IMG/VR virus record: IMGVR_UViG_3300028030_000007
Location: 1 to 64,000 of that record
Source of the DNA: a virus
Length of the DNA stretch: 64,000 bases
Direction: 5' to 3' (one strand)
Shown here: piece by piece, positions 1,774-36,891 of the stretch
How positions within the stretch are numbered: the stretch's first letter is position 1
Layout of the letters: each line of letters starts with the position of its first letter
Notes under the pieces: model-generated
What the model was told of the DNA's origin: nothing
The model's database searches: none
The model's input: the letters and a program-made list of their open reading frames with translations, nothing else
Translations under genes and position numbers: made by a program

Positions 1774-3492
1774 ATGCCGAAAGTAAAATTAACAAAGTTA
1801 GAAAAGCAGGCTAGAAGAGAGTCACAATCCATTAGAATGGCGTCAGCATACGGTGGTAATGGCGCTTTCGGCGGGTCCGGGGCTGACATAGCTACGGGAA
1901 ACTCTTCATTTTACAGCCCCCAGCTTTCAACAGATTTTCTTGAGCTTCCTCAATCAGAAAGAGAAAAAAGGGAGCTTTTTAGATTTTGGTATACTAGACA
2001 TCCGATTGTCGGTGCTGCAATAGACTTTCACACTGACGTTCCGATGTCCAAGGTTCGTCTTTCACTTCCAAAGGGGAAAGACGAAAAACGAAATAAAGAA
2101 ATTCTAGCATTCTTCCAAAGAATGAGCGATAGAGTTAACTTGTTTCAATCATTGTATGACATAACTCACGAATACTGGCTTCATGGAAATGTGTTTATAT
2201 TCTGTGAAGACCACGACTTGTCTGATGATATTCCTGAAGAGTTTTTATATGATTACGAGGAAGAACAGGTCGGTGAGCTTGAATATGACGGTAATGAGAT
2301 AAAGAAAACAGTAATGAATAAGGTTCCTAAATCCAAGGAACAAAAAGAAGAACTAATTAGAAAATACGTACAAAAGAAATATGACGGATATCAAAGAATA
2401 CAAATACTGCCTCCAGAGCAAATAAAAATAGAGACGTATCAGTATACAAATCGCATAAAGATGGAACTCATTCCGTCAGAAAAGGATAAAAGCGCGATCA
2501 TAGAGGCTCAGGATGGCAATGCACAATCTGCTAGAATAGCGGACGATATACCGAATGAAATAAGAAAATCTCTGATCGAGGGAGGATCAATTCCCCTTAA
2601 TACAAGCCCGTATGATGATTTCCTCTGTTCTTCATTCTGTTATCATCTTTCACACAAAAGATCCCCGTACGATGAACGTGGGATCTCGATTTTAGAAAGA
2701 TGTCTGACAACGCTACTTTATCAAGATAAACTTCGTCAGGCTCAGACATCTATCGCTTCGAGGGCCATGACTCCGAAACGTGTGATCTGGGCGGATAAAG
2801 CGTCTGTTATGGACGTTGAGGATCTACGCGCTCAAATCGATCAAGCGTTGATTGATCCTGACTATTCTATCATTACAAACTACGAAGTACACTGGGACGA
2901 AATTGGGTCAAGGGATCGTCTGTTGGACTTGGCGTCTGAATATGAATCAACAAACAAACTTCTGTATATCGGGCTAAGAATAACCGAGTCGATGCTTACC
3001 GGTGAGTCCACTTATACCGGGGAACGCATTCACTTGGATGTTATGAACACGATGTACTTGCTTTATAGAGAGCAAGTTGCTGGTTCATTTGTTGAGGAAA
3101 ATCTGTTCAAGCCGGTGGCGGAAAAGAAAGGATTTTGGGAGGAAGATGAATTCGGAAATAAGATCTTGCTCTATCCAAAACTTCAGTTTACACGTCTTGC
3201 GCTCCGTGACAATAGTGAGCTTTCTGATTATATGTTCAATTTGTATCAAAAAGGCTCACTACCTGTGGAGTATATTTATGAACTTCTTAACATAGATCCT
3301 GGTGATGCGCATGAACTATTGAAACGGGATTTGTTCACTGTTAAGGATAGCACGTTCAATGAGTTCTTGAGAAACGTCATGCAAGCCTCTGCTGCTGATA
3401 TCGCTCAAAATTCAAATATCAGTGAAGTTATATCAGAAAATAGCGGTCTTCAATACACGTCAACAGATAAAAAAGAAGAGAGTAGATTCTAG
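1774..3492 (+). CDS. Portal protein
   Basis: Follows TerL; about 570 aa. Portal-like segments FWYTRHPIVGAAIDFH, EYWLHGNVF and RGISILERCL. ATG at 1774 preferred over TTG at 1756. Confidence 0.85.
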   Translation: MPKVKLTKLEKQARRESQSIRMASAYGGNGAFGGSGADIATGNSSFYSPQLSTDFLELPQSEREKRELFRFWYTRHPIVGAAIDFHTDVPMSKVRLSLPKGKDEKRNKEILAFFQRMSDRVNLFQSLYDITHEYWLHGNVFIFCEDHDLSDDIPEEFLYDYEEEQVGELEYDGNEIKKTVMNKVPKSKEQKEELIRKYVQKKYDGYQRIQILPPEQIKIETYQYTNRIKMELIPSEKDKSAIIEAQDGNAQSARIADDIPNEIRKSLIEGGSIPLNTSPYDDFLCSSFCYHLSHKRSPYDERGISILERCLTTLLYQDKLRQAQTSIASRAMTPKRVIWADKASVMDVEDLRAQIDQALIDPDYSIITNYEVHWDEIGSRDRLLDLASEYESTNKLLYIGLRITESMLTGESTYTGERIHLDVMNTMYLLYREQVAGSFVEENLFKPVAEKKGFWEEDEFGNKILLYPKLQFTRLALRDNSELSDYMFNLYQKGSLPVEYIYELLNIDPGDAHELLKRDLFTVKDSTFNEFLRNVMQASAADIAQNSNISEVISENSGLQYTSTDKKEESRF

Positions 3493-3518
3493 GTCATTTT
3501 TGAATCTTAATTTTTGAA

Positions 3519-5618
3519 ATGAAACCTGAAGAATACTCAGCTGAAGAAGAACGTCAGGCATTGAAAGAGGACAGAAGACGGAAGCGTCCTGGCGATAAAA
3601 GAAAAAGATACAGAACACTCACTCCGTCAAATAAAGTGACGGAAAGACACAACATAGATGTTGATGTACTTGAGAGTGAAAAAGATTTTAGCGATGGGGC
3701 AATAAGCCACGGTCCTAAAGACAGAGATATGTCTTTGGATAACAGATACGCGTCATATGATGATTTGTTAGATCACATAGATTCCGCGTTGTATGGTCCT
3801 GGTTCTTTTTCGTCCATTTACATGTCATTGAGAACTGCTGCTGATGAACAAGATGACGAAGAAGAGCTTAAAGGTGACATCGATGGTTTAAACATCGATG
3901 GAGACATAAGTAGCCTGAGTGATATACTACATAAAATTGAAAAAACGAGAAAACTACTTAGGGAAAAACCAGGTAAAAAAGAGAAGAAAAAGTTAAGGAA
4001 AGAGCTTAAGGAATACAAAGAAGATTATAAATCAGAATATGCTAAAATTAGCGGTAGAATCTTCAATACATCATCGGTTAAGCGTATAGAAACTAAATTA
4101 AATAAGGTAAAAAATATAGCATTAGGTGGTGACATAGGGTATCCAATAAATGGTGAAGTACGCAAAAAGATAGATAAAATGCGTAACAATCTATTTAATA
4201 GTATATTTTATGAATTTAGAAATCAGATGGACATGAAACCGTCAGATTATGTAATACTTAAGTTAAGGGAGTTAGACAATAAAATCGATGATGTATATGT
4301 ATCAAGGGATATAAGAAATGAATCAATACAAAAATCATATTCGTCAATAATTGACGAGATCAATAAACAAAGTACAAGTAGTACAAAATATATAGATGAG
4401 TTTTTCCATCTAGTAAAATTAGTTACAATAATAAAAGACTCCGTTAGACGCCATGGTGTACAGGGTATATTTAGAAACATCATGAAGGTTTGGAGAGACG
4501 GAGATAGCATAGAAAAGTTTAAGGCAAAGTTGAGCGATGACGATGAAACAAATCTGTATTCAATAGCTTTGTCCGCTATGGCAAATGATCTTCTCATAGA
4601 TGGTGACATACTCGGTGTCATAGAAACTCCTAGTTTGATCGGTGAAAAAAGCAATGAATACATGGATCAAGCAAGAAGCGAGTATGAAGTAATAAAGAGA
4701 ATACACGACGAAAGTAACGTAAAAGAAACAAAATCTAAGTGTGGGAAGATTAAAAATGCCAGGTCTTTCGATAAACTAATAAGAAGATCAAAGTTAATAG
4801 ATGACAATAACATAATAGAAAATTATATATACGGATTGGTTAGATATGCGTCTAGTGTGTGTGAAGAAAATTATGAGTTAGCAGAATCTATAGTTGAAAA
4901 AAGTGAAGAGATAAGAAGTAATGCTAACACGCAGTATAGCGCTATCATGAATGGCGATGGACTGTCTGGTTTTTCATCTCTTGATTTTGATGTGTCCACC
5001 GTTAGTGGCGCTATTACATTGAATAATACACTAGCTAAGGTTATCGATCATACTAGTAGCACAATAAGAAATAAGGCTAGTGGAAAATTGATCGATATGA
5101 TAATGAACGATTACCTTGATAGGAGGTCTGAAGAAAGCATAAGACAACTTATGGGTAATAAAAAAGATTTGAATGAAGTAATGAATAGCATGCTGAAATT
5201 AATGACAGCAAAAGAAATACACAGTGAGGTATTTGGCGTTAGTGGAATATTGAGTGGGACTGATCCGAAAGATGTCACTCTTAACGGTGAACGAATAAGA
5301 GATAAAGTCTTAAGTAAAGTCATGGACTCTATGAACAAAGCTAAGAAATGGTTCAGTAGTGTCGGTGGAAAGATTAAGAGTAACTTTGAAGACGCGTATA
5401 ATACAAAAGTAATAATGAGAAATTTAAGGGACAGTGATAAAAATAAGAAAATCGGTGATAGATTGAAAGAGATGAAAAAATTCTCGGAAACTAGATTTGA
5501 GAGTGTTGATGATATGATGAGAAGGAATGATGAAAAATCATTTAAAAAACAGTTAGGTAAAAATCTAGATTTTAAGTTGGATAAATCTGTTTTGGGAATA
5601 AATGACTGGTCTGTTTGA
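3519..5618 (+). CDS. Hypothetical 699-aa helical protein, probably head-associated
   Basis: Long ORF between portal and protease; contains NRYAS and LRTAA motifs after a charged N-terminal region. Confidence 0.6.
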   Translation: MKPEEYSAEEERQALKEDRRRKRPGDKRKRYRTLTPSNKVTERHNIDVDVLESEKDFSDGAISHGPKDRDMSLDNRYASYDDLLDHIDSALYGPGSFSSIYMSLRTAADEQDDEEELKGDIDGLNIDGDISSLSDILHKIEKTRKLLREKPGKKEKKKLRKELKEYKEDYKSEYAKISGRIFNTSSVKRIETKLNKVKNIALGGDIGYPINGEVRKKIDKMRNNLFNSIFYEFRNQMDMKPSDYVILKLRELDNKIDDVYVSRDIRNESIQKSYSSIIDEINKQSTSSTKYIDEFFHLVKLVTIIKDSVRRHGVQGIFRNIMKVWRDGDSIEKFKAKLSDDDETNLYSIALSAMANDLLIDGDILGVIETPSLIGEKSNEYMDQARSEYEVIKRIHDESNVKETKSKCGKIKNARSFDKLIRRSKLIDDNNIIENYIYGLVRYASSVCEENYELAESIVEKSEEIRSNANTQYSAIMNGDGLSGFSSLDFDVSTVSGAITLNNTLAKVIDHTSSTIRNKASGKLIDMIMNDYLDRRSEESIRQLMGNKKDLNEVMNSMLKLMTAKEIHSEVFGVSGILSGTDPKDVTLNGERIRDKVLSKVMDSMNKAKKWFSSVGGKIKSNFEDAYNTKVIMRNLRDSDKNKKIGDRLKEMKKFSETRFESVDDMMRRNDEKSFKKQLGKNLDFKLDKSVLGINDWSV

Positions 5619-5644
5619 TAAATTTCTTATATTATATTTAAAGT

Positions 5645-6580
5645 ATGAAGTATAAAGATATACTAGATGAGATGAGCCGTGTCGCGGCGTATCACGGGAT
5701 AGTTAGAAAAATACCAATAGAGGGTGAAGAGGCTCATTTTAAGAGTATTAATGGGTATGGCGTTAATAGATACGTCAATGATACTACTCATTATGATTAT
5801 ATATTGAATATTGCAAAATCATTGATGAAGGAACCGGTATTCAATGATCCATACTTTGATGATGAAGATGTAGCAGATCATGCATTGAATATGGCTATAT
5901 ATGGAACCCCGATTTTTCAAAATAGAATAGACTCGTACACTTACGAACGATTACTCAATGACCTATCTGGTGTTGGGCATGGTCCTGCTGGATATAATGA
6001 CAAACAAGAAGTGTGGAATAAAACTGCTTCAGTTGCGGAGAAACAAATGAATAGCGATTATGTTAATGGTATCCTTGGCCTTTTAAAGTCTGCAGATCGT
6101 ATGGCATTTTCTGATCCGAACGTATCAGCTAGAATTTTGAAGTTCATAGTTGACTACAATGGATCAAGGATGGCCGCTGAAGAAGAGGCAATGAGTCCTG
6201 AAGCCGCCGCTAGAATTAGTGAGATAATTCAAGAGGCTCTTGATGGATTCAAGGCTGCTGAAGAAGCAGCCGAGGAAGCAAAGACCTCAATCAAAGATAT
6301 GCAAAAGAAGAAGCGTCTTCAGCAAGAGAGTTTAAAGCTAAAGAAAGAGCGTGAGGCCCTTCAGGCTATCCTAAGAGAGTATAACCCTGAGGATATCTTC
6401 GGTGAAATTGATAAAATAATGATGGAAACCGAACAGGGCGAAGGCGAAGAGAAAACGTCTTCATTGATAAATAGGGCAATCAATATTGCTATAAAAGACA
6501 ACGAGTTTATGCCTAAGATAGCTGGATCTGTAGCTTCAATAGTTGTTACCAAGATCAGTATGGCTAAACTGTCTAAATAA
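5645..6580 (+). CDS. Hypothetical protein, probable internal head protein
   Basis: 311-aa ORF in the head cluster; motifs SRVAA, NKTAS, SRMAA; coiled-coil-like C-terminal half. Confidence 0.6.
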   Translation: MKYKDILDEMSRVAAYHGIVRKIPIEGEEAHFKSINGYGVNRYVNDTTHYDYILNIAKSLMKEPVFNDPYFDDEDVADHALNMAIYGTPIFQNRIDSYTYERLLNDLSGVGHGPAGYNDKQEVWNKTASVAEKQMNSDYVNGILGLLKSADRMAFSDPNVSARILKFIVDYNGSRMAAEEEAMSPEAAARISEIIQEALDGFKAAEEAAEEAKTSIKDMQKKKRLQQESLKLKKEREALQAILREYNPEDIFGEIDKIMMETEQGEGEEKTSSLINRAINIAIKDNEFMPKIAGSVASIVVTKISMAKLSK

Positions 6581-6644
6581 GTTATTTATTATTGTTTTTA
6601 GCTAGAATTTTCAGTTATAACTGTGAATCGGAGAAGATACTAAA

Positions 6645-7145
6645 ATGGATAAAAGAATTGCAGCCAAGGTTTTAGACGAGCTTGATTCTATCGCTAATGG
6701 AATTGAATCGATCACTGCTTCAGGTAAAATCAACGAAAGAGTAGCGTCTGACATTCTTACGAGAATCGATGGCCTATCTGATAAGATTGAGTCATCAGTC
6801 TTTGGACAGGAGCAAATGCGTAATCGAGTCGCCGCTGTTCTTCGTGCCGACGCTGATGAGCCTTACATGAAGGATCACTTCGTCAACACCGTTATGCCTC
6901 GTCGCACTGAGCCCGATGAGCCTTACATGCATGAAGTTGGTGCTTCTTACAGGTCCAGAGCGATTAAGACGTTTGATGCTGATAGAAGTTCATCGATGTA
7001 TAATCGCGATGAGTATGCTGTTCGTGGTGCTGATAGTACAGAGGTGCAGCCTTCATGGCAGCATGGTCCCGTTAAGGACCCATCGTACAGATCAGCATCG
7101 GCGCGTCGTCGTGCTATGATGAGAAAAATTGCTAAAGAGCAGTAA
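6645..7145 (+). CDS. Hypothetical protein, probable internal head/core protein
   Basis: SD (GGAG) upstream; motifs KRIAA, ERVAS, NRVAA; internal DEPYM duplication (gatgagccttacatg at 6855 and 6915). Confidence 0.6.
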   Translation: MDKRIAAKVLDELDSIANGIESITASGKINERVASDILTRIDGLSDKIESSVFGQEQMRNRVAAVLRADADEPYMKDHFVNTVMPRRTEPDEPYMHEVGASYRSRAIKTFDADRSSSMYNRDEYAVRGADSTEVQPSWQHGPVKDPSYRSASARRRAMMRKIAKEQ

Positions 7146-7223
7146 AACCTAAATTCTCTGATTTAGGGTTATCACATCAGGCCCCCATATAATAGTGGGA
7201 TCTGTGAATAGCAAGCAAAAGAT

Positions 7224-7742
7224 ATGGGAACACATAGAAAAGCTTTTCTTGATTTTAGAAGACTTAGTCGTGGCTTTGATAGAGGCGACATAGTGCAAAA
7301 GTCTTCAATGAAAGATAACCTTATAACTCCGTATCATGGTAAGGTTTTCTATGTGAATCATGAGTCTGGATATCTTATGGTCATGTGGCCGTGGGGAATG
7401 GAACAGGAACTTCCTGACCAGTTAGTTAAGATTGGTCATGAGGATGCTGATCAATTTGACATGGATTTCATGTATGATACGTGGGATGCTAGAACTCATG
7501 GTGCATACTCTGGTGTAAATCAGCCTGGACATATGGGTTTGTCATACAGACAGGACAGTTCTCGTAGCAACTATAGCAAGGCTTATAAGGTAGCAAGCCA
7601 TTCCATGCATCATGGAAATGACATTTACCAGACTGTTTCAATAATGAGAAACAATGGTATAAATGGTGATGAAGCAAAACGAGTTGCTAGAGATCTGTAT
7701 GGGCTAAGGTATAAACTTTATCTACAGAAGAAAGTTAGATAG
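7224..7742 (+). CDS. Hypothetical protein with SH3-like beta module
   Basis: GDIV...YHGKV...LMVMWPWG...PDQL pattern resembles small SH3-like folds; located in the head cluster. Confidence 0.5.
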   Translation: MGTHRKAFLDFRRLSRGFDRGDIVQKSSMKDNLITPYHGKVFYVNHESGYLMVMWPWGMEQELPDQLVKIGHEDADQFDMDFMYDTWDARTHGAYSGVNQPGHMGLSYRQDSSRSNYSKAYKVASHSMHHGNDIYQTVSIMRNNGINGDEAKRVARDLYGLRYKLYLQKKVR

Positions 7743-7743
7743 A

Positions 7744-8553
7744 ATGTATAATGGGAAACAAGCCGCTGAACTCATTCGTTTAGCTAGTAAGTCAGACGCA
7801 TTTTCAGGCTCGGTTATTGCTGCCTCGATTATGAAGTTAGCAACATCAGAGTTAGAGCCCTTGGATCTTAGAAATGAATTTTCTAAGGTTAACAGGCTTC
7901 AGTACAAATCATCTGAGGATATCATCGATGAGGTTTACTCACTTCTCGGTGAAATGTACTCAGATCTTATGATCGATAAGATGGAAAAGATTGAGGAGAT
8001 ATTTGGTACTAATAGTGGCAGATATTCAGTCACCATCACGTCTGGTCTTTGGGATAAATTCAAGAAAAATGTCAAAAGTCTGCTTTATGGTGAGCAGTTT
8101 GAACCGGTGATGAATGAAGAGACTAACTTTGATTCCGGTGAGAAGATAGACAGAGATATTGTTAACGCTCAGAGAGCTTCAGATATTTTTGAAAATGTAT
8201 ACGCCAAATATGAAACTGCGATATCGGACATCAATGAACTTATAAAGCAGCATGATGGTGGAAACGCAATATTTGACGTTTCCTATGTTTCACTTCCAAT
8301 AAAGAGATTTATCTCTGGTGTTTTGAAGCCTGCTATGATGGAAATAAAGCAGATGATGAGATCTCCTAAGGTTTCATCGAAGATAGTCGATTACGTTATC
8401 AAATCGATTGAAAAGAACTCCAGCGTTCAAGATAACTACATCAGTGAGCTGAAACAGATCGTTTCAACTGACAAATCAGCTGTTAGGATCATCAAACTTG
8501 CTGCTACAAATCCTGCTGGTCGTCATCATTTGATGAGCATACTTAATTCTTAA
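7744..8553 (+). CDS. Hypothetical protein, probable internal head protein
   Basis: Motifs LIRLAS, IMKLAT and C-terminal IIKLAATNP. Confidence 0.55.
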   Translation: MYNGKQAAELIRLASKSDAFSGSVIAASIMKLATSELEPLDLRNEFSKVNRLQYKSSEDIIDEVYSLLGEMYSDLMIDKMEKIEEIFGTNSGRYSVTITSGLWDKFKKNVKSLLYGEQFEPVMNEETNFDSGEKIDRDIVNAQRASDIFENVYAKYETAISDINELIKQHDGGNAIFDVSYVSLPIKRFISGVLKPAMMEIKQMMRSPKVSSKIVDYVIKSIEKNSSVQDNYISELKQIVSTDKSAVRIIKLAATNPAGRHHLMSILNS

Positions 8554-8566
8554 ATTTTAGTAACAC

Positions 8567-8607
8567 CATGTGCCCATTCAATTATCTCCTGGTTGAGTGG
8601 GCACATG
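8567..8607 (+). terminator. Stem-loop (15-bp stem), putative terminator or processing hairpin
   Basis: catgtgcccattcaa ... ttgagtgggcacatg inverted repeat (one G-U pair) just after the stop at 8553; no long U-tract. Confidence 0.6.
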
Positions 8608-8674
8608 AGTATAGAAAATTTATATTATATTAATGATGTAGATGCATCAGTATGCTATAAAGAGGTTTCGTTAA

Positions 8675-10264
8675 ATGGCTCACAAAAAATACGCACATGC
8701 AGTCCTGACAGATAAAGTATTTCCATTCGAAAAGTGGATGGATGAGATAGTAAGTCATAACGATACGTCAATACTGCATGATAACTCAAAATACAGGAGA
8801 GCCTCTAAAGTATTACAAAAGGTAGATCCGAGTAAGTATTTACTATCACATGCTACTATTATAGCATCGGTTGATACATATGCTCCTAAAAATGTTAAAT
8901 TAGGAAAACGTATGTATGCCGGTAATCAGATAAATGTTAAATATCCTGATTATAGAATGAAGCCATATGGATTTAAGATTATAAATAATAATGGTGACGC
9001 ATGGGAAAGATCATTACTACTCTCTACATATAGAACCTTCATTGGTGCTCCAAATTATCTTGAACATGTTCAAATACCGGATTTATCAAAGGGCTTTATA
9101 ATTGATGCTGTAGCTAGAGATCTCGGTGAATCGTGTTATATTGACATTTTAGTGGCCACTGATAAAAAGCACTCAAAATTAGTTACTGACATTGAAAATG
9201 ATGTTATCACCGGTCTTTCAATGGGCTGCATATCACAGTTCACTATATGTACGAAATGTGGAAATGTTGCTTATGATGATTCACAACTCTGCTCTTGTAT
9301 TCAATATGAGGGTAAGGGAACGATGTTCACAGATGAAAATGGAGATGAGCACCCGATCTGTGAGCTAGTAGGACACGTTAGTGATCCAACGTCAAATCAG
9401 TTTATTGAGGCTTCGTGGGTACATTCACCGGCATTCGCTGGAGCTGTAAAAAGAAACATACTAAATTATGATATTAAAGAAGTAACCAATAAGATGGCGA
9501 CAGCGGTTGAAAACAGTTCTGGCATTTTCATTGATGGGAAAATGAAAAAAGTCGCTGCCGATGAAGATGCTGCCGATGAACCGGCACCGGCACCGGAACC
9601 GGAATCGGATGGACCTAGCATGCCTGGTCTCGATGGACCTGGTAGTTTATTAGGTGGTCCTGGTGGATCCGATGATGAACCTGACGACAAACAAGAAGAT
9701 GATAAAGAAGGTGGGATCGTACTGGATTCTATTGATGATATTAAAAAAGAAATACTAAATATGGTTAGAAAAGAGATTAAGAGGGAACTATCATCTCTTA
9801 ATATAAATGAAATAGATACAGTAGATTTCGCAGAGGCTAACGTAACAAATTCACACGGTGAAAAGAATAAGGGCAGTGAAGCTTCTGTAGATAAAGAAAA
9901 TAGTAATGTTCAGCACGCATTCATTGAAAATGTTAAATCTAAGATTAAGGATCCGAGAATCGTTGATTGGACGGTAAAAATGTCCAGTCGATTAGCATCT
10001 AATAACCTATCAAACATAACTGATAAACATATACTATCATTTTCATTAATTAATGATGCTATATCAGGTAAAAAATATAATAAGAAATTATATAAGGTTA
10101 TGAATAAAGTAGGTAGGATTAGTAAATATAGTAGTAAAAAACAATTCTTAATGAAATGCGGATCTATTTTAAATAGGAAGATGACCCATGATGAAATGAA
10201 ATTTTTCATTGAGAAGGGTACTATATTAAATGATGTTTACAATGTTAAGAAACATAGTAAATAA
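8675..10264 (+). CDS. Prohead maturation protease (HK97/herpes-assemblin-like fold) with Cys-rich Zn insertion and acidic linker
   Basis: NNNGD...NYLEH (catalytic His region), GLSMGC (Ser nucleophile), CTKCGN..CSC, FIEASWVHSPAF. Positioned before scaffold and MCP. Confidence 0.8.
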   Translation: MAHKKYAHAVLTDKVFPFEKWMDEIVSHNDTSILHDNSKYRRASKVLQKVDPSKYLLSHATIIASVDTYAPKNVKLGKRMYAGNQINVKYPDYRMKPYGFKIINNNGDAWERSLLLSTYRTFIGAPNYLEHVQIPDLSKGFIIDAVARDLGESCYIDILVATDKKHSKLVTDIENDVITGLSMGCISQFTICTKCGNVAYDDSQLCSCIQYEGKGTMFTDENGDEHPICELVGHVSDPTSNQFIEASWVHSPAFAGAVKRNILNYDIKEVTNKMATAVENSSGIFIDGKMKKVAADEDAADEPAPAPEPESDGPSMPGLDGPGSLLGGPGGSDDEPDDKQEDDKEGGIVLDSIDDIKKEILNMVRKEIKRELSSLNINEIDTVDFAEANVTNSHGEKNKGSEASVDKENSNVQHAFIENVKSKIKDPRIVDWTVKMSSRLASNNLSNITDKHILSFSLINDAISGKKYNKKLYKVMNKVGRISKYSSKKQFLMKCGSILNRKMTHDEMKFFIEKGTILNDVYNVKKHSK

Positions 10265-10390
10265 ATAAAATTTTTTTAATTACTTTGTAGGTAGAAGTTA
10301 AATTCTGAATTGTTAGTTATGTTGTAACTAACCGCTGGCGGAGACCAAAACAAACGGCACGAGTTATAATTTACTGGAGCTATACGAGCT

Positions 10391-11527
10391 ATGAGAAAGA
10401 GAATTACTTGGAAAAATGGTAAAAGAAACGCTTCATCAACGCGAGAGGCTTCAAGAAGAAGGCTTGCTGCTGAAGGGTCATCTGTTGATATTTACAATGT
10501 GAACAACCCAAGTCACATTAACCCTGACGCTGATGCGTACATGTTCCAGGATCGACCCTGGGAAGATGTGGTGAACACTGAAATGCGTCACATCTATGAT
10601 GGATATGATGGTGAGTTTGAAGCTCGTGATGAAGTTGGTCTTCCCAGAATGAAGCCTGAAACATTTTCCGGTTATGGAGCCACTAAGGGTTGGGGTGTTT
10701 CCAAGGGATATGATAATCAGAAATTAGCCGTTGCTCGTGGTAGGTCTGCTGTCATCAAGCGTGTTGCTGCTAGAATGGCTGATCCTTCTGACACTCAGAA
10801 GTATCGAAGAGTCGTTGCTTCGCTTAAGAGACTTCCTGATGAGAAGCTCATTTCTCTTTATACTAATAAAGAGGCTTCTGTCAAGAAGGAAAACGACAAG
10901 GACGCATACAAGAAGGCTCTTGTCGCGACGAAACTTGCTGCAATAACCGCTCCTAATGCTTCAAGCGCTAGCATTAAGAGACTGGCTACTCTTTTCAATT
11001 CAATGCCTGATGATGAGTTGAAGAGCATGGCGAAGGTTGTTGTTGAGGGTAAGAAGAAGTCCAATAGAGTCGCTTCTTTGGACTCAAATGACCTTGACGC
11101 CATCAAGGATATTGTTAAGTCAGCTATCCTTGAAAGTGAAGCGCTTAGCAAGGTCGAGGCCATGCCGGTTGAAGAGCCGATCGAGCTTCCCGAAGAGCCC
11201 GTCATCGAGGAAGAGGTTCCCGAAGAGCCTGTCATTGAGGAAGCTCCTGTCGAGACTCCTGAGGAAGAGGCCATGGAGACTCCTGAGGAAGAGGCCATGG
11301 AGACTCCTGAGGAAGAGGCTGCTGAAGCTGCTGCTGGTATCGAGGAAGAGGTTCCTGAGAATCTTGAAGAGATCTTTGCTGAAGAGCCTGTTGCAAAACA
11401 GTCTTCAACTAAGATGAACGCACGTGGGATTTCACGCAAGGCTTCCGGCGTCAAGAAATTGGGATCTGTTAAGATCGGCAAAGACATGTCTGAAGAGGAC
11501 ATAGTCGCTGCACTTTTGGGTAAGTAA
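10391..11527 (+). CDS. Capsid scaffolding / prohead core protein
   Basis: Between protease and capsid genes; helical basic region followed by Glu/Pro-rich repeats; codon usage like the highly expressed MCP. Confidence 0.65.
   Translation: MRKRITWKNGKRNASSTREASRRRLAAEGSSVDIYNVNNPSHINPDADAYMFQDRPWEDVVNTEMRHIYDGYDGEFEARDEVGLPRMKPETFSGYGATKGWGVSKGYDNQKLAVARGRSAVIKRVAARMADPSDTQKYRRVVASLKRLPDEKLISLYTNKEASVKKENDKDAYKKALVATKLAAITAPNASSASIKRLATLFNSMPDDELKSMAKVVVEGKKKSNRVASLDSNDLDAIKDIVKSAILESEALSKVEAMPVEEPIELPEEPVIEEEVPEEPVIEEAPVETPEEEAMETPEEEAMETPEEEAAEAAAGIEEEVPENLEEIFAEEPVAKQSSTKMNARGISRKASGVKKLGSVKIGKDMSEEDIVAALLGK
11252..11319 (+). repeat. 24-nt coding tandem repeat (ETPEEEAM x~3)
   Basis: gagactcctgaggaagaggccatg at 11252 and 11276, partial copy at 11300; preceded by two PEEPVIEE units. 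Confidence 0.9.
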
Positions 11528-12312: not shown

Positions 12313-13206
12313 ATGAGTCTTTTTGATTTCAATAAGTCCGTTGATCCCATTGCTGCCGAAAAGTTCTTCGGTGGGCTAGTCGGTAGTCCGCAAGGACGCA
12401 TGAGAATTGCGTCTGGCATGACCCAATCTCTCCGCGAGCGCAGAGATTATTCATCCGTTGGACGCCGAGCGTTCCTCGTCGAGCAGATTCCTGATGGAGT
12501 TCTGCCCTATTATGACAAGGATCCTGACGTCGTGGCCTACGTGGTTGGTGAAGAGGGTGACTCAATTACCGCTAAAGCTAAGCCTCGCCGCGTTACGTTC
12601 CCCCTGTTCGAGATTGCTGCTCTCGTCAAGACCCCGCTTTCTCAGGTCAAAGAGCGTCGTTATGACATGCTCAAGAGAATGCAGGACCTTGGCAAAGCCC
12701 AGATTCAAGCTGCTGAGGACGATCGAGTTTTCTCAATTATGGACGCTATCGCCCTTAATGGTTTCGACTCACTTCCCGGCCAGTTGAACGCTGACATTCC
12801 CGTCGCCGCTCCTCTTACTTCAGAGGTCTTGGCTGATGCTTTCGCTCAGATCGACCGCCATGACTTGAGGACGTCAAACGTCTTCATGAACGCTGTTGAC
12901 TACGCCGACCTTCGTAAGTTCGGTCGAGAGGTCTTGGACATCGAGTCACAGGCCACTCTCTGGAAGACGGGCGTGATGGCTTCTGGCTGGAATGCCAAGT
13001 TCATCGTTTCACGCCTTGTCCCGCCAGGCGTCGTTTACGTCACTGGTGAGCCTGAGCATTTCGGTCGTATTCCGGTCCGAACCGAGCTTACCGTCATCTC
13101 CGCTGACAACCCCGAAGAGCGAACCATCGGTTTCTCGATGTTTGAGCAGCTCGGAATCGGTGCGTTCAACCCGCGTGCTCTCGTCCGCATCCTGATCGCT
13201 CGATAA
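12313..13206 (+). CDS. Major capsid protein (HK97 fold, no delta domain)
   Basis: Follows protease and scaffold; SD AAGGA; strongest codon bias in the window (C-ending codons; 0 of 18 Ile codons are ATA); followed by a strong hairpin. Confidence 0.88.
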   Translation: MSLFDFNKSVDPIAAEKFFGGLVGSPQGRMRIASGMTQSLRERRDYSSVGRRAFLVEQIPDGVLPYYDKDPDVVAYVVGEEGDSITAKAKPRRVTFPLFEIAALVKTPLSQVKERRYDMLKRMQDLGKAQIQAAEDDRVFSIMDAIALNGFDSLPGQLNADIPVAAPLTSEVLADAFAQIDRHDLRTSNVFMNAVDYADLRKFGREVLDIESQATLWKTGVMASGWNAKFIVSRLVPPGVVYVTGEPEHFGRIPVRTELTVISADNPEERTIGFSMFEQLGIGAFNPRALVRILIAR

Positions 13207-14819: not shown

Positions 14820-14843
14820 TTAAATAAACTCCGGAAATAAAAA

Positions 14844-16732: not shown

Positions 16733-16781
16733 CTTGAACGATTGTAATGTATAAATATAAATTTTACACAAAGGAACGATA

Positions 16782-17747: not shown

Positions 17748-17881
17748 ACAACACAAAGTCACTTAGTATCAGCCCACCATCAATGTGGCTGTTGATTTTA
17801 ACCACCACCATCACAAACAACAACAATACACACACCATGGATTACGCTATTTATGTATGATATACATAGAGGAATAAAAGT

Positions 17882-21408: not shown

Positions 21409-21411
21409 GCC

Positions 21412-21621: not shown

Positions 21622-21638
21622 CTGTAAAGTGAGTCATC

Positions 21639-22535: not shown

Positions 22536-22538
22536 TTA

Positions 22539-22859: not shown

Positions 22860-22865
22860 TATCTA

Positions 22866-24919: not shown

Positions 24920-24978
24920 TTGTTTTTAAATCTTTTTTCTATTTTGTTTATGTAAAATTACACCTGTATGCTAAAAAT

Positions 24979-25955: not shown

Positions 25956-26572
25956 AAGCTTACAAAATAACAAATAACTCAAACATGAACATAAGAATAG
26001 AAGATATCGGTGTTCAGATAAACTCTAAATGTTCTTGTATCGTATCTCAACAACAACTCGGTTCATCGAGTGATATAAATAGATTTTCAGATTACATAAC
26101 AGTAAATGAAATAGTAGTAAATAACCCGTCATCAATACATAAACCGAGTTTTATAAAAAAGCATGGTCAGATAATATTCAATCCGATCATGGAAAAGAAA
26201 GAAAGTCATACCGAAGAAAGAATAGACGATATAAACAAACATTTAGTCGGGCTTAACAAATCGATAGAAGAATTGAAGAGTCTAATAAATGAAAGAGCAA
26301 GATTGATTGAAGAAAGTAAATCGATCATAAAGTATGAAATAGAGAAACAACCGGGGTCAGAAAGTAAAATTGATGAAGATCCGGAAAGTATGATAGTTGT
26401 TGGTGAACTTGTTCCGACACCTAAAGAAACACAGATCAATATTAGGTCAAAAGAAACTGAGTCAGAATCGTTTTCTTCTGCTAGAAAGGCGTTGAAAAAC
26501 GCTAGGAAATCCACTAAGAAGCCGTCAAGAAAATCAACCAAGAAACCCGCCAGGAAATCAACTAAAAAATGA
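25952..26572 (+). CDS. Hypothetical coiled-coil protein with histone-H1-like C-terminal tail
   Basis: Central heptad segment; tail ARKSTKKPSRKSTKKPARKSTKK. Confidence 0.6.
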   Translation: MKAYKITNNSNMNIRIEDIGVQINSKCSCIVSQQQLGSSSDINRFSDYITVNEIVVNNPSSIHKPSFIKKHGQIIFNPIMEKKESHTEERIDDINKHLVGLNKSIEELKSLINERARLIEESKSIIKYEIEKQPGSESKIDEDPESMIVVGELVPTPKETQINIRSKETESESFSSARKALKNARKSTKKPSRKSTKKPARKSTKK

Positions 26573-26943
26573 ATAAAAAACAGTTTTTATTGCAACTAGC
26601 GGATCATCACTCTAGACTGGCGGCATCATTCAATAAGATCGCTCGCGATGAAGAGTGTCGTACATTATTGGACACTGCAAGCACACTTATAAAAAAGTCC
26701 ATACAATACTCATTTATGAGTAGACTTGATAATCCGATGTTGTATGTTCAACAGTTTAATAATATATTAAATAATAATCTTGATAAACTCATTGAATGCG
26801 GGATCACTAAAAGTTATATGTTACAACTTGTTCAAGATTTGACTAGATATGAAGTTGATAGAGCGTCAAAAGTATCCGATAACAAATTTCATGAAAATGT
26901 ATTAAGAAAACTAATACAAGTTGTAACCCGTCAAAATTGGTAA
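26569..26943 (+). CDS. Hypothetical protein with MNK..FL..L..HH.RLA.SF.K.A leader
   Basis: First 25 aa are homologous to those of ORF 30026. Confidence 0.65.
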   Translation: MNKKQFLLQLADHHSRLAASFNKIARDEECRTLLDTASTLIKKSIQYSFMSRLDNPMLYVQQFNNILNNNLDKLIECGITKSYMLQLVQDLTRYEVDRASKVSDNKFHENVLRKLIQVVTRQNW

Positions 26944-27010
26944 AAACGTAGGCGGCTGTTGTATTGTATTGTTATTCAATGACCGCCTACGAAAGTATTT
27001 GGAGATACTA

Positions 27011-27994
27011 ATGGAACCTGGAGTTGGACTAGATTGTGGAACAATGAACTTTGTCTCTGCCAGAAGAAATGGCAAGAAGATATCTACATCGAGACTTCGG
27101 GATGTGTTCATTGATCTTCCTAAAGAAAATAAAAGGATGCTTAAACTATCAAAAACCTCATACATAGAGTATGACGGAAAATTGATAGTAATAGGTGATG
27201 AAGCTATACAAACGGCGAACTTGTTTAATAAAGAGGTTCGTCGTCCAATGAATAACGGAATAATTTCATCAGGAGAGATTGAAGCCAGAAGCGTCATGGC
27301 AATAATGATGAAACAGCTTCTAGGCGATCCGATAGCAGAGAATGAAAAATGTTGTTACTCTGTTCCGGCGAAGTCCATAGATAACAATTCTGACATTATC
27401 TATCATAGAGCGATGTTAGGAATGATACTCGAAGAAATAGGGTATGACCCTGAGCCAATAAATGAATCTCTGGCCGTTATCTATTCTGAGTGTGAAAAAG
27501 ATAACTTTTCAGGGATCGCGCTTTCATTTGGGTCCGGGATGACCAACGTTTGTATGTCGTATAATGCTATGAGCGCTATGGAGTTTTCCCTAGGTAGAGG
27601 CGGCGATTGGGTTGACAATGGAGCGGCGAAGGCTGTTGGAAGTACATCAGCTAAGATGTGCTCAATAAAAGAAAAGGGTGTGAATATTAAAGCACCTAGT
27701 AGTAGAAATGAAGAGGCCATAGCGCTTTATATAAGGGAACTCATCGATTATTCCATTAAGGGAATCATTAAAGAGTTTTCATCGAATGATAACATAATGA
27801 CGATCCCAACATCTATCCCGATCGTTATATCTGGTGGTACGTCACTCGCTGATGGTTTCGCTGATATGTTCACTGAGAGATTCGAAAAATTTAAGGATAA
27901 GTTTCCTGTTAGCGTGTCAAACATCAGGCAGGCTAAGGATCCACTTACTTCTGTCGCTAATGGTCTTTTGTTAATATCATCACTTGATGATTAA
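27011..27994 (+). CDS. Actin-like ATPase (MreB/MamK-like)
   Basis: Phosphate-1 GLDCGT, IGDEA, RPMNNGII, connect-1 INESLA, phosphate-2 SFGSGMTN, GGDWVD, adenosine ISGGTS, connect-2 DPLTSVANG. GGAG SD before ATG 27011. Confidence 0.9.
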   Translation: MEPGVGLDCGTMNFVSARRNGKKISTSRLRDVFIDLPKENKRMLKLSKTSYIEYDGKLIVIGDEAIQTANLFNKEVRRPMNNGIISSGEIEARSVMAIMMKQLLGDPIAENEKCCYSVPAKSIDNNSDIIYHRAMLGMILEEIGYDPEPINESLAVIYSECEKDNFSGIALSFGSGMTNVCMSYNAMSAMEFSLGRGGDWVDNGAAKAVGSTSAKMCSIKEKGVNIKAPSSRNEEAIALYIRELIDYSIKGIIKEFSSNDNIMTIPTSIPIVISGGTSLADGFADMFTERFEKFKDKFPVSVSNIRQAKDPLTSVANGLLLISSLDD

Positions 27995-28052
27995 GATTTT
28001 TTTATTTGATTAAGTTTAGACAATTTCTAAACCTAACGCAAGGAATATATCG

Positions 28053-28361
28053 ATGGCGAAGATAATGTACAAGGGTGTTACTTTTGTAGTCGGAGATCCG
28101 AAAAAGCCTGAGCCCAAGAAGGTTGAAAAGAAGGCCGAAAAGAAGGCCGAGCCAAAGAAGGCCGAGCCAAAGAAGGTTGAAAAGGTTGAAAAGGTTGAAA
28201 AGGTTGAAAAGAAGCCTGAGCCCAAGAAGCCTGAGCCCAAGAAGCCTGAGCCCAAGAAGCCTGAGCCCAAGAAGCCTGAGCCCAAGAAGGAAGAGCCTAA
28301 GAAGGTGATCACCAGAAGGGCTACAAGAAAAAAGTCAACTAGAAGGTCATCAAAGAAGTAG
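28053..28361 (+). CDS. Lys/Glu/Pro-rich repeat protein with basic tail
   Basis: SD AAGGA; KKPEP, KKAEP and KVE repeats; C-terminus RRATRKKSTRRSSKK. Confidence 0.65.
   Translation: MAKIMYKGVTFVVGDPKKPEPKKVEKKAEKKAEPKKAEPKKVEKVEKVEKVEKKPEPKKPEPKKPEPKKPEPKKPEPKKEEPKKVITRRATRKKSTRRSSKK
28173..28283 (+). repeat. Coding tandem repeats: aaggttgaa x4 then aagaagcctgagccc x5
   Basis: Exact copies at 28173-28208 (9-mer) and 28209-28283 (15-mer). Confidence 0.95.
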
Positions 28362-28368
28362 ATGATAA

Positions 28369-29511
28369 ATGATATCATGGATATCAAACCCAATAAAGAA
28401 ACGGGTAGTTGAATTATTAAAGAATATACTATCCGAAAATCCTAAGTATGCACAATATTCCGATAATATTCTAAATAAATTTTCATATAAAGAGAGACAA
28501 TCTGTCGGAATAATAGTAAACTCCACATCATCAAATAAACTTCACATGTCAGCGGATAACTTCCTAGGGAATTATTATTCGTTTGTCATGTTATCATCGG
28601 TCGATGGTTACTCATCAAAATCCATTGAGTGGGTGAAAGAAGACAGGTATAAACTTCTTCAGTTATCGTCAAAGGCCGATAACTTCCCTACAAAGCCAGG
28701 ATCATACGTCGTTGAGATAACGAAAGTTCCGGACCAAACACCCGGTACTTTTGTTATTTACAGTTATCTCGATGTACGCAGTGAACAGTTAATTCTTGTA
28801 AATACCGGGTCATCTGTGGAGGCCCAACTTCCAGCGACCGATATCGTTGAAAATTCTGTTGATCTGTACTATGATGACAAATATGCGTTAATTAATGGAA
28901 GTGATTACACAATAGATTATGAGTCGGGTCTTATAACGTTCACAGAATTGACCGCTGATGCTAACGTAACCGCGTCATACCGTTATTATAGTGGTAAATC
29001 GTCCGAGTATGAGTATGAATATGACAAATACAATAACACGGCTTTACCTGGTGTTATAATAGCATTTGGTGAGTATTCACAACTAGGTGATAAACAAGTA
29101 ATAACAGTCACGGATGAGAGACTTCACGTTTATGATACATATGGTGGGAGATTTGAAACTGATTTTGGATTAACTTTATTCACTAAAGATCCAGAAGAAA
29201 GAGAAAGACTGACAGATTATATAATACTAAAGATACTTCAATCACAAAGTAGTCTAGCTGATGAGGGAATAGAAATTCTTAACGTAGGTCATGGCGGGGA
29301 AGACGAAGAAGCTTATAACTCAGAAACTGATGAGTATTACTACGAATCAAACGTAAGTTTGCAACTTCGCGTTGATTGGATGATTTACAAGCCAAAGGTT
29401 ATAACTTCAATAGGCTACAATTTGAATGATGATAATCATCCAGAAAAAGCTAGCACAGTTATAAATGTGTGCAATGTATACAGAAATACAACAATACCGA
29501 TGATGAGATAG
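28369..29511 (+). CDS. Tail completion / terminator-like protein
   Basis: Upstream of the sheath; Ig-like insert (DYTIDYESGLITF); C-terminal tail-terminator-like strand/helix pattern. Confidence 0.5.
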   Translation: MISWISNPIKKRVVELLKNILSENPKYAQYSDNILNKFSYKERQSVGIIVNSTSSNKLHMSADNFLGNYYSFVMLSSVDGYSSKSIEWVKEDRYKLLQLSSKADNFPTKPGSYVVEITKVPDQTPGTFVIYSYLDVRSEQLILVNTGSSVEAQLPATDIVENSVDLYYDDKYALINGSDYTIDYESGLITFTELTADANVTASYRYYSGKSSEYEYEYDKYNNTALPGVIIAFGEYSQLGDKQVITVTDERLHVYDTYGGRFETDFGLTLFTKDPEERERLTDYIILKILQSQSSLADEGIEILNVGHGGEDEEAYNSETDEYYYESNVSLQLRVDWMIYKPKVITSIGYNLNDDNHPEKASTVINVCNVYRNTTIPMMR

Positions 29512-29553
29512 TGTATAGTTATATATGTTAACCCACTACAAGGAATCACTATA

Positions 29554-30000
29554 ATGCCGATATATGAATACTACTGTGAAAAATGTAACTATTTGTTTGA
29601 ACAGTTACTAAATAGTTCTGAAAAAGAAGAATATAAAGACGGTTATCCATGCCCACAATGCGGTAAGATCGCCACAAAGTTGATATCAAAGTCTAATTTT
29701 GTTTTTAAATCAGACACTCCCGGTAACTCTGGAGTCCATGATCTGGACTACCCATCGGTTGATAAAGCCGTAGGACGTTCAGCCAATAGAAAGTGGAAAG
29801 AAATACACAAACAACAAGAAGCTAGGGACAAGGTAAGGAAAGAAACCGGTAAACAAGCACTGTCTACCGTATCAATAGCTGAGAATAAATACAAGCCAGC
29901 TAGCAAGGACATACTAGAAGACAGAAAAAAACTAAACAAAAAACTATCCAATATACCAGAATCTAATTTCATTAAATACGAACCATCAGTGAAAAAATAA
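29554..30000 (+). CDS. FmdB-family zinc-ribbon protein
   Basis: MPIYEYYCEKCNYLFEQL...CPQCG...KLIS signature. Confidence 0.8.
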   Translation: MPIYEYYCEKCNYLFEQLLNSSEKEEYKDGYPCPQCGKIATKLISKSNFVFKSDTPGNSGVHDLDYPSVDKAVGRSANRKWKEIHKQQEARDKVRKETGKQALSTVSIAENKYKPASKDILEDRKKLNKKLSNIPESNFIKYEPSVKK

Positions 30001-30025
30001 AACTACTATAAAGTTTGTTATACAA

Positions 30026-30490
30026 ATGAATAAAGTAGAATTTTTAATGTCGCTGTCAAAGCATCATGAAAGGTTAGCCTCATCGTTTAGAAAAGAGGCT
30101 TCACTCATTAGTGATGATGTTGATCAGTATGGTCCCCAGGAAGACTCTATTGACATTTGGAAGTTAATTCCCATTGTTGATAATGAGGTTGTCGGCATAG
30201 GTGATATGCTGGAGGACCTTAGAGAGACCATCATGGGCGAGTACAATGGTACACGCTCTGTTAACGATATACTATCTGTATTCTACACTATATATGACAT
30301 GATTTCTCATCTTGCAGAAAGTGTCAAGGAAATCGATAAAGCTATTGGTGGCGATGAATACACGAAAAAGTACAGGTCAAAGCTTTTGAACATGATCCAT
30401 TTTTCTGAAATGCCTAATAAAAAGTATGCATGGATGAAGAGTGAACTTGCAGAGTTTATCGGTGAAAAGCTTTCATCAAATTTGTGGTGA
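30026..30490 (+). CDS. Hypothetical protein with leader shared with ORF 26569
   Basis: MNKVEFLMSLSKHHERLASSFRKEAS. Confidence 0.65.
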   Translation: MNKVEFLMSLSKHHERLASSFRKEASLISDDVDQYGPQEDSIDIWKLIPIVDNEVVGIGDMLEDLRETIMGEYNGTRSVNDILSVFYTIYDMISHLAESVKEIDKAIGGDEYTKKYRSKLLNMIHFSEMPNKKYAWMKSELAEFIGEKLSSNLW

Positions 30491-30520
30491 TAAGACTGGC
30501 GTACGGTGGCGCATGGTTAA

Positions 30521-30919
30521 ATGTCAATTCTAAGAAAAGTTAGCCATCGATATAGAGTCGCCGCATTTACTAGAACAATACCTAATAACAGTGAATATTA
30601 TAAAAATCAAATAACATACGATAATGAAAAAATCAAATCATTAATACTAGAAGCCAACGAAAAACTTAATGACCTGAGAGAATCACTAAACAACGTAGGT
30701 AGTGTTATCACACCTCCGTCATTGATGATATACAGGATAATCAATATAGCTTACATATTACAGTATACAAATATGTTTAGCAATGATATATTAATGGACT
30801 ATATGTATGAAATAATGATTGTACTAAATAGTTCATTACCAAAAAGTTCACCCATTAGATTTAGATTGATCGATAAATTGATGTCCGCTGAGTCATTTTA
30901 TCGATCTAAATTTAAATGA
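30521..30919 (+). CDS. Hypothetical protein with LRKVSHRYRVAA leader
   Basis: 132-aa ORF. Confidence 0.55.
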   Translation: MSILRKVSHRYRVAAFTRTIPNNSEYYKNQITYDNEKIKSLILEANEKLNDLRESLNNVGSVITPPSLMIYRIINIAYILQYTNMFSNDILMDYMYEIMIVLNSSLPKSSPIRFRLIDKLMSAESFYRSKFK

Positions 30920-36194: not shown

Positions 36195-36228
36195 TGGTTA
36201 TAAAGGCTATAACATTTCAGGAAATAAG

Positions 36229-36891
36229 ATGAAAAGAAGAAATAAAAGAGTTTCATGCGGTGATTGGTACTCAGGTATGGGTCAGGGTCCTATGATGCCT
36301 CCCCGTGGTGGTAAAAGAGCCCCTGGTATGGGTCCTATGATGCCTATGCAAGAAGAGCAGGTTCCAGAATTTCAGCCCGATCCTGATTATAGCAAGATCA
36401 TGCAGCACGGACCGTTTGAGGCTGAGTCAAAGGGTGAATACGCTGAGGTCAATGGCGAGCCTGTTGTGAATGAATTGGAATACAAGGATTCATTCGGAAA
36501 TTACGAAGAGGGTCCTATGGTTCCTGAATTCCAGTCAATCGGTCCGGTTTCTCCCCTATCTGATAGACATGATTATGGATCCGACCCGATCGGTGACATG
36601 ATGGTCGTGGCTTCAAGGGCCGCTAGAAATTATAGAAGAATTGCTAGCGTGCTTTCAAAGCTCTATCAAATCCGCAAGTCAACTAAGGGCAATCGACGCA
36701 TGGCTTCCGATGTCAGTAACATGACGAAAAAGGTTGCTGGCCTTTTCTCCCTTATAGACACTGTTGATGACCTTGATCGTCCGTTGGATGAAATCGAACG
36801 CGCCGTTCATTCAATGTATGGAGATCAGTCAAAGAATTCGACTTTTTACCTCAAGAGAAGAGGTAAGGGTCATCTTGAAGACAAGGAATAA
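36229..36891 (+). CDS. Hypothetical protein (Met/Pro-rich N-terminus; RRIAS and RRMAS motifs)
   Basis: 220 aa; internal GPMMP x2 and VPEFQ x2. Confidence 0.6.
   Translation: MKRRNKRVSCGDWYSGMGQGPMMPPRGGKRAPGMGPMMPMQEEQVPEFQPDPDYSKIMQHGPFEAESKGEYAEVNGEPVVNELEYKDSFGNYEEGPMVPEFQSIGPVSPLSDRHDYGSDPIGDMMVVASRAARNYRRIASVLSKLYQIRKSTKGNRRMASDVSNMTKKVAGLFSLIDTVDDLDRPLDEIERAVHSMYGDQSKNSTFYLKRRGKGHLEDKE

Follow-up and report, generated by a model that had tools for sequence, protein, structure and literature searches.

Head maturation by a dedicated protease, together with the loading of proteins into the head through cleavable leaders, is known from phage T4 and the phiKZ-like phages, where the rule is to cut after Glu. 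In SPN3US and phiKZ-like phages, one protease cuts the major capsid protein (MCP), the portal, the ejection proteins, and itself at A-x-E (PMC10052503). The internal proteins of T4 have only a capsid-targeting sequence (CTS) in common (PMC3012670), and herpesvirus proteases have R and M sites (PMC4498786). Here, we describe a different motif of four residues, [KR]-x-A-[AS], that recurs in the head proteins encoded by a virus fragment from IMG/VR (record IMGVR_UViG_3300028030_000007). The stretch under analysis, referred to as the window, is the first 64 kb (positions 1 to 64,000) of this 88-kb fragment. In our judgment, the motif likely marks the sites recognized by the prohead protease that the phage itself encodes in open reading frame (ORF) 8675, with the short leader that often carries it acting as a capsid-loading tag. 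The cutting code and the protease fold are strongly supported and the loading leader moderately so. From these data we infer that cleavage occurs and that the leader-bearing proteins are packaged.

A basic-x-Ala-Ser/Ala motif in the head module

A first-pass annotation of the window had listed copies of [KR]-x-A-[AS] in a series of named ORFs. All of them are present where they had been reported, and further copies occur in ORF 6645 (RSAS), ORF 7744 (KQAA), and the scaffold gene (REAS). The ORFs between positions 1756 and 36891 contain 50 copies, compared to approximately 13 in shuffles that keep local composition (z ~10), and all 54 ORFs together contain 59, compared to 20.5 ± 4.6 in per-protein shuffles. 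By region, 25 copies are found in 3519-11527 (4.4 after shuffling) and 19 in 13323-30919 (4.7 after shuffling). The tail and baseplate region (36898-64000) is at background, with 9 copies versus 8.3, and the rest of the genome (63-88 kb) contains 6 versus 4.6. The count therefore bears out the proposed enrichment over shuffled controls. The accompanying claim that the motif is rare in tail genes holds insofar as there is no excess in these genes, but they show a background level and not a depletion. The Arg form is the stronger one, with 18 copies of R.A[AS] versus 1.6 and 10 copies of R[VLIM]A[AS] versus 0.4 in 3519-11527.

When shuffling is confined to blocks of 10 or 20 residues, so that local composition is kept, z still ranges from 9 to 17, and reversed motifs, permuted motifs, and [DE].A[AS] show no excess over background. 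A blind scan of all contiguous and gapped tripeptides ranks R.AS first (21 versus 2.6, p = 7e-13). Single-position substitution likewise recovers the motif: Arg is preferred over Lys at P3, Met, Leu, Val, or Ile occupies P2, only Ala is accepted at P1, and Ser is preferred over Ala at P1'. The same result was obtained independently in 12 relatives, and it fits the specificity that had been suggested for the protease, namely a basic P3 with Ala at P1. Only these four positions are constrained, with variable flanks. The codons of the motif are varied and match background usage, indicating that the constraint acts on the protein and not on the DNA.

A search with the protease retrieved 27 related IMG/VR loci, mostly from contigs of 270-436 kb, and two complete relatives, G002 (393 kb) and G005 (427 kb), were analyzed in 20-kb bins. 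In many of 29 related loci, the three best matches of the blind scan include R.AS or K.AS. The same scan places K.AS high in a 485-kb uncultured phage and second in the head region of Tunturiibacter phage Tunturi 5. In G002, enrichment is restricted to three bins around the head module, the ratios in the other 17 bins being 0.2-1.7, and the head bin contains 33 copies of [KR].A[AS] versus 11.2 and 21 of R.A[AS] versus 5.0. Similarly, enrichment in G005 is restricted to two head-module bins (22 versus 9.0 and 24 versus 6.5), and no significant excess is seen in any of the 19 remaining full 20-kb bins (ratios of 0.5-2.0). Other head-module bins of the complete relatives reach 15 copies of R.A[AS] versus 3.6 and 14 versus 2.8. 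This confinement to head bins marks the excess as a property of the head region of the clade and not of whole genomes. Separately, the motif looks underrepresented in positions 1-60000 of G002 (L032-L034), with 8 copies compared to approximately 20 under a simple composition expectation.

Several copies in the head module are conserved in position. In the MCP (12313-13206), RIAS at residues 31-34 (12403-12414, + strand) occupies the same alignment column in 19 of 23 orthologs and is predicted from the sequence to be the removal site of an N-terminal propeptide of approximately 33 residues. The MCP bodies of 22 orthologs contain no motif at all, compared to approximately nine expected. Such avoidance in the mature MCP body is expected of a protein that shares a compartment with the protease. 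The portal (1756/1774-3492, + strand) carries RMAS at residue 27, counted from the TTG start (1834-1845, + strand); 14 of 18 orthologs show R-[VMI]-A-[AS] in the same column, after which a Gly-rich stretch follows.

In the protease itself, KVAA at residues 292-295 (9548-9559, + strand) lies just past the protease domain and is found in the same columns in 22 of 25 orthologs. The consensus of 81 homologs with 40-60% identity to the window protease still shows a KAAS island past the domain. In the structural model discussed below, KVAA 292-295 falls in a low-confidence linker beyond the last helix, and by analogy with the herpesvirus R site it is predicted to be a self-release site. A second site, near the protease C terminus, is present in 18 of 25 relatives and not in the window.

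The scaffold-like protein (10391-11527, + strand; 378 residues) has eight motif copies, compared to 1.3 expected. Three of them are conserved: REAS 18-21 (10442-10453, + strand) in 12 of 14 orthologs, KLAA 181-184 (10931-10942, + strand) in 10 of 14, and RKAS 349-352 (11435-11446, + strand) in all 14. The last of these lies 27 residues from the C terminus, and its distance from the end is 27-40 residues across the orthologs. With an overall scaffold identity of approximately 27%, this C-terminal R-x-A-S stands out as an island amid variable residues, with a conserved G-[AV]-K-K-L-G tail behind it. It is predicted to be the counterpart of the herpesvirus M site, again by analogy.

Five ORFs on the + strand lie between the portal and protease genes (3519-5618, 5645-6580, 6645-7145, 7224-7742, and 7744-8553), and no family was found for any of them in Pfam or PHROG. 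Together they contain 14 motif copies versus approximately 2.4 expected, and their products are predicted on these grounds to be internal or core head proteins that are processed. RVAS at residue 32 of ORF 6645 is conserved in 13 of 15 orthologs. In ORF 5645, the leader ends at RVAA|YHG, a junction whose counterpart in 460- to 875-residue homologs from seven relatives is an internal [KR]-x-A-[AT]|YHG, so that the same site ends a leader here and marks a domain boundary there. With its confinement to the head region in three genomes, its conserved positions, and its absence from MCP bodies, the motif behaves like a protease recognition site, as had been proposed.

Several relatives (L005, L009, L011, L013, and L028) encode a single protein of 740-875 residues whose C-terminal part matches ORF 5645; in the window, the gene for this protein is split or rearranged into ORFs 3519 and 5645. 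ORF 3519 has no detectable homolog in the relatives.

The prohead protease encoded by ORF 8675

ORF 8675 (8675-10264, + strand) encodes a 529-residue prohead (head) maturation protease that matches PHROG 18299 ("head maturation protease"; E = 1.9e-8), and the gene is placed between the portal gene and the scaffold and MCP genes. The catalytic domain covers approximately residues 50-265, followed by an acidic/Pro-rich linker and a C-terminal domain. His131 (9065-9067) and Ser182 (9218-9220), the latter within GLSMGC, are 51 residues apart and invariant in 15 close and 81 diverse homologs. These two residues are likely catalytic, which agrees with the importance that the first-pass annotation had attached to the Ser of GLSMG.

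A profile search of 1.8 billion representative proteins yielded 2011 clusters, 371 of which had E < 1e-30. A structural model based on the 15 close sequences was unusable (predicted local distance difference test [pLDDT] score of 45) and was replaced by an AlphaFold2 model built on an 81-sequence alignment, which has a pLDDT of 84 overall and above 93 over residues 50-265. Foldseek lists T4 gp21 first, followed by the proteases of Epstein-Barr virus, KSHV (Kaposi's sarcoma-associated herpesvirus), pseudorabies virus, and herpes simplex virus 1, with marginal E-values (2e-3 and above). In VIA-align, the protease of varicella-zoster virus scores Z 11.6 (root mean square deviation of 2.4, 113 residues aligned), ahead of T4 gp21 (Z 10.4, 124 residues aligned) and the human cytomegalovirus and KSHV proteases (Z 9.0 and 7.3, respectively); the first unrelated fold follows at Z 6.8. 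Judged by this model, ORF 8675 is a serine protease with the assemblin/T4 gp21 fold (MEROPS clan SH), as had been anticipated at the first pass.

At the sequence level, 15 family members gave no match to the Pfam protease families S21, S77/U9, S78, and S80 at E-values up to 10, and a PDB sequence search with the protease profile gave none either. The lack of a match to a curated family points to a separate sequence family with the same fold. The C-terminal region of the protease has no similarity to the scaffold, and the two genes are separate, not fused or nested as in the herpesvirus arrangement.

Two further features of the protease were observed. First, four conserved cysteines (C185, C192, C195, and C206) lie just past the catalytic Ser (residues 185-206; 9227-9292). 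Three of the four are invariant in the 81-sequence alignment, and the Cys-rich stretch gives weak zinc-ribbon matches in Pfam for 10 of 15 family members. To our knowledge, an insert of this kind past the catalytic Ser has not been described for gp21 or assemblin. Second, many protease homologs reach 900-1500 residues owing to inteins, one to three of which are inserted in the catalytic domain (L024-L030, P0004, P0008, and others). In L028 (10001-12760), an element with Hint and LAGLIDADG domains begins at the Cys right after the catalytic G-x-S-M-G, and further points of insertion are found near profile positions 105, 127, 192, and 231. The window protease (8675-10264) is free of inteins.

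N-terminal leaders, cargo, and alternative explanations

The motif had been described as often standing at the end of a short N-terminal leader, and the count agrees: 11 proteins carry it within their first 30 residues, compared to approximately 1.5 expected. In the complete relatives, 16 N termini in G002 contain [KR][IVLM]A[AS] (approximately 4 expected) and 15 in G005 (approximately 3 expected), and the protein bodies behind these leaders show no mutual BLAST similarity at E < 1e-3. The leaders follow the pattern M-[DN]-[FL]-x-[KR]-I-A-[AS]-[RK]-[IV]-A-[AS]. In G005, a run of six small genes immediately behind the MCP gene encodes proteins with the leader, and others lie up to 200 kb away. 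A narrower class, defined by [KR]-I-A-[ASK] in the first 16 residues, includes 8 ORFs versus 0.75 expected in G002 and 10 versus 0.8 in G005. In the genome of the window, it includes five versus 0.12, namely, ORFs 6645, 14337 (- strand), 21412, 22539, and 81291 (- strand).

Several leaders can be delimited in the window. That of ORF 14337-14819 (14766-14819, - strand) contains K-I-A-K, then KTAA at residues 15-18, and that of ORF 22539-22859 (22539-22574, + strand) ends in KIAS (residues 9-12), behind which a Lys-rich body begins. The 69-residue product of ORF 21412-21621 has a leader of the R-I-A-K type (21412-21459, + strand); with Lys at P1', it belongs to the leader class while departing from the strict form of the cutting motif. 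ORFs 26569-26943 and 30026-30490 each have a 25-residue leader (26569-26643 and 30026-30100, both on the + strand), with RLAA at residues 16-19 in the former and RLAS at 16-19 and KEAS at 23-26 in the latter. The two have 15 of 25 leader residues in common, and their similarity ends after residue 25. In ORF 30521-30919, the leader (30521-30565, + strand) ends in RVAA (residues 12-15). No family was found in Pfam or PHROG for ten leader-bearing small proteins. By analogy with T4, the short amphipathic leader is probably a capsid-targeting sequence that is cut off after loading.

The first-pass annotation had put the number of packaged proteins at about 15. The motif is found in nine proteins of the head module, from portal to MCP, and in six of these (portal, ORF 5645, ORF 6645, protease, scaffold, and MCP) its sites are conserved among orthologs. 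Five or six small leader-bearing orphans are credible cargo candidates. Between 13 and 37 kb, internal (nonleader) copies number 16 versus 5.4 as a group, and 12 versus 3.6 (p ~3e-4) after removal of the sheath and of ORF 16782, which contains a K/P/A repeat. Individually, these internal copies are indistinguishable from the four to five expected by chance. The figure of about 15 is supported only for the copies taken as a group. The proposal that scattered copies mark internal head proteins is credible for the five or six leader-bearing orphans and not for other carriers, such as the tail sheath and the membrane-anchored GT51 enzyme, which are implausible as cargo.

In the most probable of the alternatives, the cutting code is real only for the core head-module proteins, and the scattered copies and leaders are due to chance or to a shared N-terminal helix with another role (oligomerization, localization, or chaperone binding). 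The chance matches expected at 13-37 kb, the sheath and the membrane-anchored GT51 enzyme as carriers, the Lys after Ala in the leader of ORF 21412, and the want of demonstrable ortholog conservation for ORFs 30026 and 30521 all speak for it. Nevertheless, the internal copies at 13-37 kb remain in excess after the doubtful carriers are removed, and the N-terminal copies exceed expectation (11 versus 1.5). Unrelated proteins of three genomes carry leaders of this class 10 to 40 times as often as expected, these leaders hold the same [KR]-[IV]-A-[AS] core as the head proteins, and six leader genes directly follow the MCP gene of G005. We therefore regard a code limited to the core proteins as unlikely.

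Less probable still is a motif that is never cleaved and serves as an interaction or structural element, such as a helix binding the scaffold, core, portal, or MCP N-arms, and is kept for assembly. The motifs of the MCP and ORF 6645 do lie within conserved, probably helical stretches, and no cleavage has been observed. A binding helix would not explain why the mature MCP body avoids the motif, as is expected of a protease site, and only four positions are constrained while the flanks vary. Moreover, the motif recurs at the boundary between protease domain and linker in a family of approximately 2000 sequence clusters, as well as at leader ends and domain junctions of unrelated proteins. Finally, an origin of the excess in composition, low complexity, DNA repeats, or R-x-x-S kinase sites was rejected by the shuffle, permutation, codon, and substitution controls and deserves next to no credence: head-module proteins are somewhat Ala- and Arg-rich and two KPAA copies of ORF 16782 fall in its K/P/A repeat, but block shuffling preserves the signal, reversed and permuted motifs stay at background, the codons are diverse, and Ala is obligatory at P1 and replaces Ser at P1', which is disallowed for a phospho-acceptor.

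Under the favored explanation, a prohead protease recognition site combined with a loading leader, the protease would be built into the procapsid together with the scaffold. It would cut at Arg, or less often Lys, followed by an aliphatic or other residue and Ala, before Ser or Ala and sometimes Thr, with the scissile bond placed after Ala by analogy with assemblin. The enzyme would free itself from its C-terminal tether at residues 292-295, cut the scaffold in several places, one of them 27 residues from the scaffold C terminus, and trim approximately 30 residues from the N termini of the capsid protein and the portal. The head proteins encoded between portal and protease would be processed as well. 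The leader, with the core [KR]-I-A-[AS]-[RK]-[IV]-A-[AS] in relatives, would bring orphan proteins into the scaffold core and then be removed.

Several points weigh against this explanation. Because orthologs share ancestry, a count such as 19/23 does not represent independent events, and since the MCP motif lies inside a broadly conserved stretch, the motif is not singled out by its conservation in this protein. For ORFs 30026 and 30521, five large relatives yielded no orthologs, and their leaders therefore cannot be checked by conservation. The position of the scissile bond is assumed by analogy, and the literature consulted offers no evidence, whether proteomic, biochemical, or structural, that cleavage or packaging takes place in this phage or a relative. 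In addition, the MCP of phage G lacks the motif and this phage shows no overall excess, and the Bxz1-like mycobacteriophage LinStu, which encodes a distant protease homolog, shows only a weak excess in its head genes against a GC-rich background. These two results limit how general the rule is. In phage G, K-[VIM]-A-S occurs only near the portal N terminus and twice at the protease C terminus. Its portal gp14 has KMAS at residue 55, followed by a Gly-rich stretch, an N-terminal setting similar to that in the window portal.

A broader version of the favored explanation would extend to the whole phage G-like lineage. All of its members would then use an Ala|Ser rule with a basic P3, and a 12-residue leader, M-x-x-x-[KR]-I-A-[AS]-[RK]-[IV]-A-[AS], would load dozens of fast-evolving orphan proteins, encoded across 400-kb genomes, for delivery with the DNA. 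We put this forward tentatively, as a possibility that we rate at somewhat below even. No published basic-x-Ala|Ser rule for a phage prohead protease was found in the literature that was searched; a 2020 JMB structure and mass spectrometry paper on phage G may report cleavage sites. A 2025 multi-omics paper on phage G reports particle proteomics and no cleavage sites, and the Tunturi paper contains no virion proteomics.

Genomic setting and comparison with known systems

The 88-kb fragment is estimated to be approximately 20% complete, which implies a phage genome of roughly 400 kb or more, and its GC content is approximately 38%. The head module forms the left end of the window. It comprises the genes for TerL (103-1749), the portal (PHROG portal, E = 1e-27), the five unassigned ORFs, the protease, the scaffold, a 212-residue protein encoded between the scaffold and MCP genes, and the MCP (PHROG major head protein, E = 5.7e-44), an order that is kept in relatives. 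Phage G, a giant phage in culture, has an MCP homolog in gp27 (PDB 6WKK; E = 4.5e-51). In tblastn searches with the protease, the nearest relative is the 485-kb uncultured phage, followed by Tunturi 5 (309 kb), with Bxz1-like mycobacteriophages as more distant relatives. No near-identical DNA was found in the phage collection. Long Gln-rich tracts (QQQ/QGQ) occur in the head-module proteins of many relatives (L008, L012, L013, L018, L020, L024, and others), for example, 31 QQQ versus 2.5 expected, and are not present in the window phage.

The stretch from 13 to 31 kb is mixed: besides many orphan ORFs, it holds genes for an MCP paralogue, GT51, AAA_28, a TilS-like PP-loop enzyme, and a volactin-like actin; the sheath and the tail and baseplate genes come after it. 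The diverged MCP paralogue (13323-14336) lies directly downstream of the MCP gene (31% identity, E = 8e-43), has approximately 50 additional N-terminal residues and no copy of the cutting motif, and may be a vertex protein like T4 gp24. The GT51 peptidoglycan transglycosylase domain (E = 1e-42) is encoded by 14844-16732, together with an N-terminal hydrophobic anchor, and this gene overlaps the start of the AAA_28 P-loop gene. The PP-loop ATPase of the TilS type (24116-24919, - strand) matches ATP_bind_3 (E = 2e-45), and the actin-fold protein amid the virion genes (26969-27994) matches Pfam Volactin (E = 1e-80). Two small proteins (19643-19984, - strand, and 29554-30000, + strand) each begin with a Zn_ribbon_8 domain, and in Tunturi 5 a homolog of the latter is encoded next to the tail terminator gene.

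A separate, very large, and almost wholly uncultured lineage, to which phage G and Tunturi 5 belong along with hundreds of huge phages known from metagenomes, thus appears to use a rule different from cutting after Glu and closer to that of assemblin. If this is true, the mature ends of head proteins would be predictable from sequence alone in huge phages that cannot be grown, and their injected proteomes, likely containing antidefense or takeover factors, could be listed in the same way. The leader would also be a candidate tag by which foreign proteins might be brought into very large capsids. Two relatives in culture, phage G and Tunturi 5, allow the rule to be tested; both have homologous MCPs and proteases in the same gene order (gp14 portal, gp19 protease, gp26, and gp27 MCP in phage G). 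Unlike the window protease, that of phage G is only 300 residues long and has no long C-terminal domain.

The logic of the proposed system is that of T4 gp21, phiKZ gp175, and SPN3US gp245, which have the same fold, and in which one protease trims the MCP, the portal, scaffold or core proteins, internal or ejection proteins, and itself at a motif of three to four residues. These enzymes cut after Glu, at (L/I)-x-E, (S/A/G)-x-E, and A-x-E, whereas the motif described here contains no Glu and has an inferred Ala at P1 and a basic P3. The leaders resemble the T4 CTS of IPI-III and Alt in being short, in standing on unrelated, fast-evolving small proteins, some of them encoded in tandem beside the head genes, and in carrying the motif of the head protease, with the exception of ORF 21412 and its Lys after Ala. 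The leader sequence itself differs from the T4 CTS, its core being [KR]-I-A-[AS]-[RK]-[IV]-A-[AS].

A parallel in specificity is found outside the tailed phages. The fold of herpesvirus assemblin (MEROPS S21) is the best structural match of the window protease, and the R/M layout recurs in the predicted sites past the protease domain and approximately 27 residues from the scaffold C terminus. Assemblin reportedly cuts at a (V/L)-x-A|S consensus, which is said to go back to Welch (1991) and DiIanni (1993), and its Ala at P1 and Ser at P1' match the motif found here. In contrast to assemblin, P3 is basic (Arg over Lys) and not aliphatic, Ala is nearly as common as Ser at P1', and there are many more putative substrates, including the capsid protein and the portal. 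Protease and scaffold are encoded by separate genes without mutual similarity, the protease has no Pfam S21 match, and it carries a Cys-rich, zinc ribbon-like insert after the catalytic Ser. Should the rule hold, it would add a new data point on how specificity evolved in the assemblin/gp21 fold that links tailed phages and herpesviruses, and the combination of Ala at P1 with R- and M-type sites could be an old trait shared with assemblin and not a coincidence.

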